From: Shigella phage PSD9
Sequence record: MZ561532
Strand: one strand, 5' to 3'
DNA: 64,000 bases
The notes under the pieces are model-generated. The model saw only the letters and a list, made by a program, of their open reading frames with translations. It had not been told where the DNA came from and made no database searches. Shown here piece by piece: positions 59,105 through 60,540 of this stretch. The translations under genes and the position numbers were made by a program. Each line of letters starts with the position of its first letter. Position 1 is the stretch's first letter.

Positions 59105-59659
59105 TCAGTTCTTGTAGAACCGGAATGGGTTTATGTGGAAGGCTAACATAGCCTTAGGGATTTTACGAGACAAAAGGCTCTTAAGCTTCCAACCACAGTA
59201 CACGCGAAGGTAAAAGGTAATCCCACCAACCTTAAGATATGGAACTGAAGCAAATACACCCCAGGCGTCGTCATTCCACATCCATAACCATCCGTGATGA
59301 GCTTTATCAGGAGAACCGGATTCCACGTCGGGATTACCTCGATAATGGAATTCCGAGCTACAATCACGACCGAGTTTATGGTAAGCAAAGTTATAAGCTT
59401 TATTTCGCCATAGCCAAGCTACTCTCTGAAGATAAACACCACCCGGCATTTTCCTGATGTTAGCCCAACGTTTAATATGACCTTTGTCGCCGTCAATTGG
59501 ATTATCGTATGTCATCATCCAATCAAAGCCATATGGTAATTTACCGGTCTTTTTATTGTGGAAAGGGACTACAAAAGGTGCAAGGATAACAGCCAGAACC
59601 ATAGAGATAAAATCTAGAGGAACCAACAGTACCCAACTCAAATATTTTAAAAGTTTCAT
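59105..59659 (-). CDS. hypothetical membrane protein (184 aa)
   Basis: N-terminal TM helix; Trp/His-rich; late promoter upstream; flanked by identical terminators. Confidence 0.45.
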   Translation of the reverse strand: MKLLKYLSWVLLVPLDFISMVLAVILAPFVVPFHNKKTGKLPYGFDWMMTYDNPIDGDKGHIKRWANIRKMPGGVYLQRVAWLWRNKAYNFAYHKLGRDCSSEFHYRGNPDVESGSPDKAHHGWLWMWNDDAWGVFASVPYLKVGGITFYLRVYCGWKLKSLLSRKIPKAMLAFHINPFRFYKN

Positions 59660-59686
59660 ATTATTTCCTAGGTTAGTTTAACTACA

Positions 59687-59694
59687 TATTTATA
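59687..59694 (-). promoter_or_regulatory. late promoter TATAAATA
   Basis: plus tatttata about 25 nt upstream of the 59105..59659 start. Confidence 0.5.
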
Positions 59695-59695
59695 C

Positions 59696-59724
59696 AAAAA
59701 AGGCCCAACCTTTCGGAAGGGCCT
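59696..59724 (-). terminator. intrinsic terminator hairpin (copy B)
   Basis: same aaaaaaggcccaacctttcggaagggcct element, 3' of the tRNA cluster. Confidence 0.6.
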
Positions 59725-59774
59725 TTAACCTAGGGTAACCTTGTCGGGGTTCCACCTGCTAGGCAAGTGTTTGT

Positions 59775-59866
59775 ACGAAACGCCGGGATTCGAACCCGGT
59801 TATTAAGTAGTTGACGCCACTCAATATTTTTAAAAGGCCGTATCTCGACCATATCCGAACGTTCCG
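59775..59866 (-). ncRNA. tRNA-like element (aberrant; canonical T-arm, no clear anticodon arm)
   Basis: minus strand has CCGGG-TTCGAAT-CCCGG T-arm and a 7-bp acceptor-like closure (CGGAACG/CGTTTCG) but an AT-rich interior I cannot fold as a tRNA. Confidence 0.3.
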
Positions 59867-60108
59867 TCAAAAACGCTACTCGGCTTACGGCAAAGATATT
59901 TCCTCGAATCGATAATTCGGTGCGCCGTTTCTGCTGTGATGTAAGGGGACGTTAACAGATCGTAAAGATTTGTTAATGCCAGTCCTTACTCAGGGAACAT
60001 CAGTCCGACGACTTACCGGTAGCGACCCGGTTTCTTGTTTGTTGCGCCGGTGAATGCTGGTAATCAGTCTTCATACGACGGCTTGACTATATAATAGTCT
60101 TCATTTGG

Positions 60109-60180
60109 TATCCCGCCCTGGGATCGAACCAGGACCGCAAACTTAGAAGGATCGTATGCTATCCATTACACCAGCGGGAC
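60109..60180 (-). tRNA. tRNA-Arg (anticodon UCU)
   Basis: hand-folded cloverleaf: acceptor GTCCCGC/GCGGGAT, D-loop AATGGATA, anticodon loop CTTCTAA, T-arm CCTGG-TTCGATC-CCAGG. Confidence 0.6.
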
Positions 60181-60188
60181 GTAGTTGG

Positions 60189-60262
60189 TGACCCAGACCA
60201 GATTTGAACTGGTAACCTTTCCCTTATGAGGGGACTGCTGCTAACCATTGAGCTACAGGGCC
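60189..60262 (-). tRNA. tRNA with CAU anticodon (Ile2-like or Met)
   Basis: hand-folded: GGCCC acceptor start, D-loop AATGGTTAG, anticodon loop CTCATAA, T-arm ACCAG-TTCAAAT-CTGGT; several stem mismatches. Confidence 0.5.
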
Positions 60263-60267
60263 TTAAT

Positions 60268-60540
60268 TTAAATTACAAATCCAGCAGGAGCATTATCATC
60301 TTTAGCCATGTGCTGAATTGTGTGATAAGTCATTTCTTCAGGAGCAACCAGATAAGCCGCAGCGTTAACTAGTGGAATTATTTTTGGTTTAGCGAATGTG
60401 CTATCGGCAATTGCCATAAAGGGCTCGCCGTCGGTCTCAACTTCGCCAAATTGACATTCATATGAAATAGAACAACGTTTGGTAGTTGTTGTCTTGGTTT
60501 CTGGGTCGTAAAAAGCTAATTTTAATACTAACATAAACAC
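60268..60540 (-). CDS. hypothetical protein (90 aa)
   Basis: minus-strand ORF adjacent to the tRNAs. Confidence 0.4.
   Translation of the reverse strand: MFMLVLKLAFYDPETKTTTTKRCSISYECQFGEVETDGEPFMAIADSTFAKPKIIPLVNAAAYLVAPEEMTYHTIQHMAKDDNAPAGFVI

Follow-up and report, generated by a model that had tools for sequence, protein, structure and literature searches.

It was in the 1970s that rnaC and rnaD became known as small RNAs of phage T4, and what these two abundant phage RNAs do has been a standing question ever since. Domains that resemble tRNA are familiar from other RNAs, namely tmRNA, bacterial YrlA, mascRNA, the 3′ tRNA-like structures of plant viruses and the tRNA-like RNAs of gammaherpesviruses. 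Complementary hairpin loops form the kissing complexes of ColE1 RNA I/RNA II, HIV-1 DIS and TAR-TAR*. In T4, both rnaC (species 1 RNA) and rnaD (species 2 RNA) accumulate as discrete stable RNAs, and species 1 RNA is detected by northern blot as a species of about 140 nt (PMC9697503). The T4 record (NC_000866) annotates tRNA-Arg, rnaD (119 nt, 71053-71171) and rnaC (139 nt, 70908-71046) in this order, and a T4 transcript has been reported to end after the species I gene (PMC2330249). How does the corresponding locus look in Shigella phage PSD9, of which a stretch of 64,000 nt (record MZ561532; hereafter the window) was analysed here?

Probable distal end of the PSD9 tRNA operon

The genome that hosts the locus is that of a T4-like (Dhakavirus-type) phage, and every element lies on the minus strand. 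In all likelihood, a T4-type tRNA operon ends here, and its distal part reads tRNA-Ile(CAU), tRNA-Arg(UCU), a 66-nt truncated rnaD-like element, rnaD, rnaC, a trailer hairpin and an intrinsic terminator. Its features are as follows.

60186-60262, minus strand: tRNA with a CAU anticodon, encoded CCA included (ARAGORN; Rfam tRNA model 60189-60262, 53.9 bits)
60106-60180, minus strand: tRNA-Arg(UCU), encoded CCA included (ARAGORN; Rfam tRNA model 60109-60180, 48.8 bits)
60036-60101, minus strand: 66-nt lineage-specific insert ('mini-rnaD') between tRNA-Arg and the rnaD core
59919-60035, minus strand: core of the rnaD homolog (T4 species 2 RNA), from alignment to T4 rnaD and a covarying fold
60015-60031, minus strand: rnaD 5′ hairpin ACCGG-GUCGCUA-CCGGU
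60006-60012 with 59920-59927, minus strand: rnaD closing stem, GUCGUCG with CGGCGCAC
59774-59912, minus strand: rnaC homolog (T4 species 1 RNA), 139 nt, 136 of 139 positions identical to T4 rnaC
59753-59769, minus strand: predicted hairpin CACUUGC-CUA-GCAGGUG in the trailer that separates rnaC from the terminator
59696-59724, minus strand: intrinsic terminator of the tRNA/small-RNA operon, a GGCCC..GGGCC hairpin followed by U6 (sequence and predicted fold)

By ARAGORN, the whole 64-kb window holds two tRNAs and no more, and both are encoded on the minus strand. An earlier note, made by hand-folding, had placed tRNA-Arg(UCU) at 60109-60180 and a CAU-anticodon tRNA at 60189-60262; the Rfam model returns the same coordinates for both, and the longer ARAGORN intervals add the encoded CCA. 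tRNA-Arg(UCU) is identical to T4 tRNA-Arg in a pairwise alignment. The CAU tRNA, which the note had read as Ile2-like, is identical at 74 of 74 positions to the T4 gene annotated as tRNA-Ile and is, by sequence identity, the T4 tRNA-Ile homolog of the Ile2 type. Its acceptor stem carries C4-G69 and C5-G68, two pairs that E. coli ileX also has. Software reads an Ile2-type CAU tRNA as Met.

Downstream of the two tRNAs, the spacer and the "odd tRNA" are, by homology, the PSD9 copies of rnaD and rnaC, elements that were already known; the guess that 59867-60108 encodes small stable RNAs as in T4 thus turned out well. tRNA-Arg, rnaD, rnaC, the trailer, and a hairpin with U6 follow each other in the same order in the PSD9 window and in T4. 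The trailer hairpin is nearly invariant between the two and is kept even in phages without rnaC. The terminator is homologous to the T4 sequence after rnaC, and the equivalent site of Yersinia phage fPS-65 carries a terminator annotation. A consensus promoter and terminator scan of the minus strand gave nothing useful, and it missed this terminator because the stem is imperfect; its one terminator-like match, on the plus strand at 60015-60031, is the rnaD 5′ hairpin read in reverse complement. rnaD and rnaC would be co-transcribed with the tRNAs of the operon.

The two RNAs are widespread. rnaC matches occur in 743 phage records, 727 of them with at least 80% of the length covered, and rnaD matches in 734. 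Public records mostly leave them unannotated or mislabel them, at times as tRNA-Met, tRNA-Lys or small hypothetical proteins; they are routinely missed since a curated RNA family is lacking. No family of Rfam 15 covers rnaC: searches of the window at the gathering threshold and at E<=10, and a gathering search of eight related loci, returned tRNAs only, and weak matches to BjrC68 (over the terminator), tRNA-Sec and isrK were judged to be chance. Neither ARAGORN nor Rfam finds a tmRNA in the window. A metagenome scan with a pattern that leaves out T4-type rnaC copies gave no matches. At times, tRNA finders report a tRNA of 92-96 nt in the 3′ part of rnaC.

Fold of rnaC

Comparison of homologous sequences makes rnaC a conserved four-way architecture, in which the own 5′ and 3′ ends of the RNA form a terminal stem (P1), with two hairpin domains (P2 and P3) and a T-arm. 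In PSD9, its parts lie as follows, in the 5′ to 3′ order of the RNA.

59905-59911 with 59776-59782, minus strand: terminal stem P1
59835-59904, minus strand: long hairpin domain P2, apical hexaloop UUGACG at 59865-59870
59827-59834, minus strand: A/U-rich linker
59801-59826, minus strand: hairpin P3, hexaloop CGUCAA at 59811-59816
59783-59799, minus strand: T-arm CCGGG-UUCGAAU-CCCGG

P1 is an acceptor-like stem of 7 positions, CGRUUCG with CGUUYCG, which holds two invariant U.U and adjoins the canonical T-arm with its GGUUCGAAUCC-type loop (59783-59799). P2 is a bent hairpin of 70 nt at the position of the D-arm, and P3 a hairpin of 9-10 bp at that of the variable arm; an anticodon arm with a 7-nt loop is absent from the predicted fold. 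T4 rnaC has the same length and also stands after rnaD and before the terminator. Three substitutions separate it from PSD9 rnaC: one falls at an unpaired position, another turns an A-U of P3 into G.U, and the third an A-U at a helix end into A.C. The 3′ end of rnaC reads U-ACA in PSD9 and U-CCA in Marfavirus.

The comparative set consists of 25 distinct homologs from at least eight genera. In a joint alignment, which is fitted to the model, 96.7% of the pairs are formed against 36-47% when the pairing is slid (0 of 500 shuffles as high), and both sides change in 33 of 52 pairs. Further counts gave 96.2% of pairs formed against 36-51% slid, and 97.9% against 36-43%. MAFFT alignments agree with the joint alignment but overlap with it in sequences. 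When nine divergent 'type B' sequences are folded alone with RNAalifold, the same architecture comes out, with compensatory changes at 16 of 42 pairs. P1 is paired in 100% of the cells across the homologs, and one of its pairs occurs as G-C (14 sequences) or as A-U (11); the middle pair of the T-arm covaries among G-C, U-A and A-U. The hexaloops, the tandem U.U and a GGCC motif are invariant over at least eight genera while the stems turn over. With the covariance model of rnaC (R1), one copy is detected in the window, at 169.7 bits; the divergent copies are all recovered too, with scores of 74-99 bits, against at most 22 bits for true tRNAs. PSD9 rnaC forms all pairs of the family model but one, and its minimum-free-energy fold is the covariation fold itself (-46.6 kcal/mol, z = -2.3), with P1 pair probabilities of 0.79-0.91. 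Folds and counts favour P2c, which pairs with the first AUAYGG repeat, over an alternative pairing GCCRU:AYGGC that uses the second one.

Does the tRNA-like part stand by itself? The earlier note took 59775-59866 for a degenerate or interrupted tRNA with a perfect T-arm, a 7-bp closure and no anticodon arm, or else for a different structured RNA. Both the T-arm and the closure (CGGAACG at 59860-59866 with CGUUUCG at 59776-59782) are indeed in the window and an anticodon arm is indeed missing, and yet the element is not self-contained: it is the 3′ two-thirds of the 139-nt rnaC, so that the boundary drawn at 59866/59867 falls inside one RNA, and the covarying rnaC fold bears out the second choice of the note. 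A pseudo-tRNA closed by the internal stem, independent of upstream sequence, would explain why ARAGORN or annotators call a tRNA in some relatives, and descent of rnaC from a tRNA gene is conceivable since P3 occupies the site of a class II variable arm. The called anticodons, however, conflict with each other (Met in PQ824230, Phe in L004, Lys in G4500), and the internal stem has no compensatory pairs, its third pair (49:138) being broken in 8 of 17 sequences. All type-B homologs lack it while they keep the terminal stem; in PSD9 it costs 7.7 kcal/mol in stability and has a pair probability of about 0, and the species 1 RNA annotated in T4 has 139 nt, with its 5′ end 46 nt further upstream. 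ARAGORN makes no call in 59775-59866, and RF00005 stays without a match there at thresholds up to E<=10; tRNA-Sec comes closest, at 16.2 bits (E=3.1). On covariation and energetics, the internal acceptor is rejected as a model for rnaC, and we consider an independent pseudo-tRNA highly improbable. That the region encodes small proteins is less credible still, and we give this reading next to no weight. There is something for it to build on, as the region overlaps with ORFs of 27-46 aa, and the records of Klebsiella phage EI, Citrobacter phages NM4.3 and Ursula, and Kosakonia phage 305 place CDSs on their homologs of rnaC or rnaD. Nevertheless, the annotated ORFs vary in frame and strand among records, homologs differ by indels of 1-2 nt in loops and linkers, and substitutions are doubles that preserve base pairs with no codon pattern; the T4 record annotates the products as stable RNAs. 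These short ORFs are the only ones that overlap the region; with none of at least 60 aa in 59867-60108, the absence of an ORF claimed there holds.

The two hexaloops of rnaC deserve a separate consideration. Those of P2 and P3 are fully complementary in every homolog, as UUGACG/CGUCAA in 22 of the 25 sequences and UUGGCG/CGCCAA in the other three, so that one pair between the loops is A-U in the former and G-C in the latter. The latter are confined to the Marfavirus clade, and a change in a single lineage is therefore probably one covariation event. A pattern free of the hexamer constraint, run on metagenomes and genomes, yielded no further loop-loop covariation; its matches were copies of the T4 type, a further Marfavirus copy and, by chance, 5-6 sites at real tRNAs. 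From the complementarity and the one covariation event, we suppose that the hexaloops may kiss within one rnaC molecule and thereby lock it in a rigid, non-tRNA shape. They might instead pair between molecules to give rnaC dimers or multimers, or each with another target. Covariation is blind to the difference between intra- and intermolecular pairing, the 6-bp duplex on its own has a modest energy of -5.5 kcal/mol, and P2 has about 26 bp against 10 bp in P3, a difference in length by which an intramolecular contact requires P2 to bend. Against this, bulges and internal loops of P2 are conserved in all lineages and could supply the bend, both loops are exactly 6 nt and fully complementary to each other, and no other conserved partner sequence is seen. 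Pairing in trans thus appears unlikely to us, and the kiss within one molecule is the contact that we take further below.

rnaD and the 66-nt insert

rnaD combines the 5′ hairpin with a long domain whose closing stem is GUCGUCG:CGGCGCAC, and it has conserved core strings. The covariance model of rnaD (R2) scores 147.3 bits on 59913-60034, and 13 of 23 pairs of the fold are compensatory when distant homologs from other genera are included. As in PSD9, T4 rnaD lies between tRNA-Arg and rnaC, and its 5′ hairpin, closing stem and 3′ tail are homologous, while the central module of PSD9 rnaD has diverged from it. This module varies between lineages in general, and sharply even among close relatives. 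During adaptation of a T4-like phage to a new host, rnaD acquired a convergent SNP (PMC12685909).

T4 rnaD starts 2 nt after the CCA of tRNA-Arg, whereas in PSD9 the 66-nt insert intervenes. It is not in T4 and occurs in just 26 phage records, with 98.7-100% identity. Its own 5′ hairpin, GACUAU/AUAGUC (60085-60099), is followed by GCCGUCG ... CGGCGCA, and the rnaD covariance model aligns to it over the full length with a score of 12 bits (E=3.6e-4 when the insert stretch alone is searched). The chained-block similarity of the insert to rnaD is marginal, being matched by 12-57 of 1000 shuffles, and a loose gapped alignment of the two is not significant (84 of 500 shuffles as high). Judged from its sequence, the insert is probably a truncated tandem copy of rnaD, a reading with moderate support; of the three comparisons, only the targeted one with the covariance model speaks for it. 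A block of about 125 nt upstream in Marfa-, Moon- and Karamvirus loci was also considered as an rnaD homolog and was rejected: the rnaD model matched a different element in these loci, so that the block is a separate RNA-like element.

Possible roles and comparison with other tRNA-like RNAs

What could the two RNAs be for? It is possible, although we hold it only tentatively, that rnaC is a tRNA mimic that would occupy or titrate a factor recognizing the acceptor/T-arm or the elbow of tRNA, and that rnaD, with its variable central module, is a host-specific modulator. Candidate targets of rnaC would be a tRNA processing or modification enzyme, or a host defence that targets tRNA. The host tRNA-processing machinery would release rnaC, with RNase P acting on the acceptor/T-arm minihelix, followed by 3′ trimming. 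Somewhat more speculative is the full picture, in which rnaC would be a Tevenvirinae-wide tRNA mimic absent from Rfam, made rigid by its kissing loops and serving as decoy or adaptor for a tRNA-recognizing host factor, while rnaD would modulate host range under diversifying selection. The convergent rnaD SNP of experimental host adaptation fits this reading of rnaD (PMC12685909).

Alternatively, neither RNA may have a function in trans, both being structured segments that act in cis, where they aid processing or shield the 3′ end of the tRNA transcript. T4-type phages place rnaD and rnaC at the 3′ end of the operon, directly before the terminator, and 50 years have passed without a function being found for either (PMC3014915). 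Moreover, two natural relatives, dhabil and vB_EcoM_005, carry a precise deletion of rnaC and are viable; rnaC is thus dispensable at least on some hosts. On the other hand, rnaC is not 3′-terminal but lies between tRNAs in Karam- and Gelderlandvirus, and in Kanagawavirus it has no adjacent tRNA at all. The invariance of the hexaloops, the U.U and the GGCC exceeds what a protective hairpin needs, and in T4 both accumulate as the discrete stable RNAs mentioned above (PMC9697503). We therefore think a role in cis alone unlikely, if less so than the pseudo-tRNA, and return to rnaC as a possible tRNA mimic.

As the result of a genome scan, the locus is ordinary, since it holds the known rnaC/rnaD pair of T4. 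What makes the old question of their role more testable is the set of comparative handles: the rnaC fold, the rnaD core with its cassette, distant homologs, and the natural deletions of rnaC.

Among known RNAs, rnaC is like the tmRNA domain, YrlA, mascRNA and the viral tRNA-like RNAs in that an acceptor-like stem made from both ends sits on a canonical T-arm, with the anticodon arm absent, and one would expect it to be matured by enzymes of tRNA processing. It differs from them in having no sequence or Rfam relationship to any and no tag reading frame, and we know of no member of these families with a tandem U.U in the acceptor-like stem or a loop-loop lock like that of P2 and P3. With class II tRNAs (Ser, Leu, Tyr) it shares a hairpin directly 5′ of the T-arm, where P3 stands like a long variable arm, but it has no anticodon stem, and its acceptor strand finds its partner 130 nt away, at the far 5′ end. 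Like the kissing complexes of ColE1 RNA I/RNA II, HIV-1 DIS and TAR-TAR*, finally, rnaC has two 6-nt loops of full Watson-Crick complementarity; unlike in these, both loops belong to one RNA of 139 nt, where the predicted contact would form beside a tRNA-like minihelix.

Two tRNA genes, rnaD and rnaC on the minus strand

In the T4 reference record, tRNA-Arg is directly followed on the same strand by rnaD (119 nt) and then by rnaC (139 nt), the stable RNAs known as species 2 and species 1. These T4 RNAs behave as late RNAs and have been detected by northern blot (PMC9697503). The window has the following elements:

60186-60262, minus: tRNA with a cat anticodon (ARAGORN; Rfam tRNA model 60189-60262, 53.9 bits)
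60106-60180, minus: tRNA-Arg(tct) (ARAGORN; Rfam tRNA model 60109-60180, 48.8 bits)
60036-60101, minus: 66-nt insert, extra relative to T4, between tRNA-Arg and the rnaD core (pairwise alignment)
59919-60035, minus: rnaD core, 5′ and 3′ parts conserved with T4, centre diverged (pairwise alignment)
59774-59912, minus: rnaC homolog, 136 of 139 positions identical to T4 rnaC (pairwise alignment)
59696-59724, minus: operon terminator, hairpin plus U6, 3′ of rnaC after a conserved trailer

From the alignment with T4, the 59775-59866 stretch, for which the earlier note had offered a degenerate or interrupted tRNA or a different structured RNA, is the 3′ 92 nt of rnaC; a self-contained degenerate tRNA does not hold. 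The roughly 240 nt that the note left unexplained comprise the first 46 nt of rnaC together with rnaD and the insert. Its guess of small stable RNAs as in T4 was right, since the spacer holds homologs of T4 rnaD and rnaC. Its tRNA coordinates coincide with the Rfam model spans, and both tRNA identities stood: the ARAGORN tct call agrees with tRNA-Arg(UCU), which shows no differences from T4 tRNA-Arg in pairwise alignment, and the CAU tRNA is identical at 74/74 positions to the T4 gene annotated tRNA-Ile, so that the Ile2-type reading holds and the label "Met" is a software default. ARAGORN calls these two tRNAs in the whole 64-kb window, an Rfam search of the window at gathering score returned nothing beyond them, and the extra matches of a permissive Rfam search of 59600-60350 were all at chance level. 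The 701-nt region has matches in 763 T4-like phage records, with 98.7% identity to Escherichia phages QL01, WG01 and KIT01 (Dhakavirus).

The terminator agrees with the reported end of the T4 tRNA-cluster transcript, beyond the species I gene (PMC2330249), and with the terminator annotated at the equivalent place in Yersinia phage fPS-65. The trailer before it (59731-59773, minus) is almost invariant relative to T4, holds a hairpin (59753-59769, minus), is kept even in phages with rnaC deleted, and may be a processing site. A consensus scan gave a single terminator-like match, 60015-60031 on the plus strand. It corresponds to the rnaD 5′ hairpin in reverse complement with a T-rich run after it, and most likely just reflects the structure of the minus-strand RNA.

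Architecture of rnaC

Which stem closes the rnaC molecule? About 670 records carry rnaC at 95-99% identity, and divergent copies also exist. Our comparison set has 25 distinct sequences from Tequatro-, Dhaka-, Mosig-, Gapriver-, Karam-, Moon-, Kanagawa-, Gelderland- and Marfavirus and unclassified relatives. R of the 5′-terminal CGRUUCG tracks Y of the 3′ CGUUYCG, being A-U in T4-type phages and G-C elsewhere, and therefore the 3′ strand beside the T-arm pairs with rnaC's own 5′ end, in a terminal stem (59905-59911 with 59776-59782) with two invariant U.U at its middle. Just 5′ of the T-arm, the P3 hairpin (59801-59826) has a stem of 9-10 bp, rich in compensatory changes, and the invariant hexaloop CGUCAA. 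Minimum-free-energy folds of single sequences from different lineages have the same architecture, and RNAalifold, given nothing but the nine most divergent sequences, recovered it too, with compensatory changes at 16 of its 42 pairs.

Pairing in rnaC alignments, with the control in which it was recounted with partners slid:
Type B (nine divergent homologs), MAFFT, 9 sequences: 96.2% of cells paired vs 36-51% slid; 17 pairs changed on both sides
Type A (window included), MAFFT, 14 sequences: 97.9% vs 36-43%; 13 pairs changed on both sides
Joint, covariance-model alignment, 25 sequences: 96.7% vs 36-47%; 33 of 52 pairs changed on both sides

The joint alignment is fitted to the model, and the two unfitted MAFFT alignments agree with it; none of 500 shuffles of the joint alignment reached the observed values.

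The internal 7-bp acceptor by which the earlier note closed its tRNA was compared head-to-head with the terminal stem on one alignment. The terminal stem had 100% of its cells paired, with one pair G-C in 9 sequences and A-U in 8, whereas the internal stem had no compensatory change and its third pair was broken in 8 of 17 sequences. For the window's rnaC, the terminal-stem fold is the minimum-free-energy structure (-46.6 kcal/mol, z = -2.3); forcing the internal acceptor costs 7.7 kcal/mol, and the terminal-stem pairs have probabilities of 0.79-0.91, those of the internal stem about 0. Of the three substitutions relative to T4, one is at an unpaired position, one turns A-U into G.U, and one turns A-U into A.C at the end of a helix. 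The rnaC covariance model finds a single copy in the window (169.7 bits) and recovers every divergent copy at 74-99 bits, while real tRNAs score at most 22 bits. T4-type phages have U-ACA as the 3′ tail beyond the terminal stem, and Marfavirus has U-CCA. A hypothetical tRNA-like 3′ end is possible, because host enzymes repair T4 tRNA precursors without encoded CCA (PMC11143913).

It is to be noted that the invariant UUGACG in the apical loop of P2, a long hairpin domain (59835-59904), is the exact complement of the P3 hexaloop. Each loop is exactly six nucleotides long; the two are complementary throughout and invariant in lineages with stem turnover, and the sole substitution seen in one is matched by the complementary one in the other: in the Marfavirus clade they have changed together, to UUGGCG and CGCCAA. 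This co-change was probably one event, as a single clade carries it, and further scans for a second loop-loop covariation event found none. We consider it fairly probable that the two predicted loops pair. That they would do so within one molecule is our reading of a covariation equally compatible with intermolecular contact.

rnaD, its distant homologs and a probable 66-nt relative

rnaD folds into a covarying 5′ hairpin, RCCGG/CCGGY, and a long domain closed by GUCGUCG:CGGCGCAC. Its central module has three unrelated versions among close relatives: near-identical genes, compared between window 59940-60000 and two groups of related-phage loci (L022/L032/L031 and L033/L034/L035), differ in this module within invariant flanks, a pattern that suggests exchanged cassettes more than gradual divergence. 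With a covariance model made from these rnaD sequences, full-length homologs of 96-103 nt that BLAST did not find came up in Moon-, Marfa- and Karamvirus loci (29-33 bits, E about 1e-6):

Minus strand: L012:785-886, L019:2273-2368, L020:12765-12860
Plus strand: L026:139-239, L024:28-123, L008:6809-6911

In these homologs the 5′ hairpin is rewritten with pairing kept, one closing-stem pair is flipped from G-C to C-G, and the core strings AAGUCGUCS, GUUCCCUG, UCACAGC and GGCGCA remain, with the central module almost absent. With them aligned, compensatory changes affect 13 of 23 pairs, and pairing holds in 91.5% of cells vs 29-46% slid. They lie several hundred nucleotides upstream of rnaC, not adjacent to it.

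Only 26 records carry the 66-nt insert, all near-identical and of Dhakavirus type. A 5′ hairpin of its own precedes GCCGUCG ... GACUGAU ... CGGCGCA, and the insert aligns end-to-end with the rnaD model (12 bits, E = 3.6e-4, in a search limited to the insert stretch); sequence-only tests were marginal. With moderate confidence we regard it as a truncated tandem rnaD copy, a mini-rnaD.

A further conserved non-coding element, the third, is a block of about 125 nt in the tRNA clusters of Marfa-, Moon- and Karamvirus (L024 about 268-390; L004 about 45-165; also L019, L020, L026, L012, L008, L003), to which Rfam gave no match. Its 10-bp closing stem shows clear compensatory substitutions (GUCUAAAGAG/CUCUUUAGAC, GUCCAGAGAG/CUCUCUGGAC, GUUCUUGAAG/CUUCAAGAAU), and its hairpin GUUCCCACAG-N4-CUGUGUUCU is that of one rnaD central-module version (G4500, fPS-65, L009).

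Placement, natural loss and possible function

rnaC lies between tRNA-Trp and tRNA-Gly in Karam- and Gelderlandvirus and without a neighbouring tRNA in Kanagawavirus; thus it is not simply a 3′-end cap. Two natural Dhakavirus phages, dhabil (L031, about 308-470) and vB_EcoM_005 (L036, about 372-530), have precisely lost rnaC and retained rnaD and the trailer, so that rnaD is joined directly to the trailer (...GCGCACCGAA|CACTTGCC...); a search with the rnaC model found no copy in either locus. rnaC is therefore dispensable on some hosts, and these natural knockouts are useful for functional tests.

Other elements accompany rnaC elsewhere. In some Marfavirus-like contigs (L019, L020, L050), a short distinct element with complementary ends, GUAAGGGGUGG...CCCACUCCAAGG, occupies about 65 nt directly upstream of rnaC, between it and a CAU tRNA; it is absent in Klebsiella phage EI. 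Downstream of rnaC in Kanagawavirus is a conserved block, GAGUAAGGCGGAARCCGGUGC...GGUUCGAGCCC, with a T-arm-like end (L007 from about 856, L025 from about 728, L028 from about 784; also L019, L020). ARAGORN called no tRNA there in L007, and the block may be another tRNA-like RNA or a tRNA fragment. Some public records label the 3′ part of rnaC tRNA-Met or tRNA-Lys, and others draw short hypothetical-protein CDSs across rnaC or rnaD homologs: PQ824230 (L005 746-840), MK327945 G4500 (L033 466-559), MN106245 (L024 517-654), PV400811 (L026 443-616), PQ589834 (L027 463-573) and MZ348423 (L028 605-733). These are probable misannotations, owing to the lack of a curated RNA family.

What could these RNAs do? 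The window's rnaC and rnaD are homologs of the T4 genes, with the same operon position and conserved folds. They would be co-transcribed with the tRNAs, RNase P and 3′ trimming would release rnaC via its acceptor/T-arm minihelix, and the loop-loop lock would give it a rigid body unlike that of tRNA. Tentatively, and with considerable doubt, rnaC might mimic a tRNA and thereby titrate or recruit a factor that recognizes the acceptor, T-arm or elbow of tRNAs, and rnaD might act as a host-specific modulator. The main rival, a purely cis role in processing or stability, seems to us unlikelier still. A 2025 experimental evolution study, which again termed rnaC and rnaD of unknown function, found a convergent SNP in the rnaD homolog of a T4-like phage adapting to strain ECOR34 (PMC12685909).

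Both elements are already known from T4. Added here are a covariation-supported architecture for a family without an Rfam entry, wider rnaD homologs, a lineage-specific mini-rnaD and natural rnaC deletions, and with these the old question of the T4 species 1 and species 2 RNAs becomes more directly testable.
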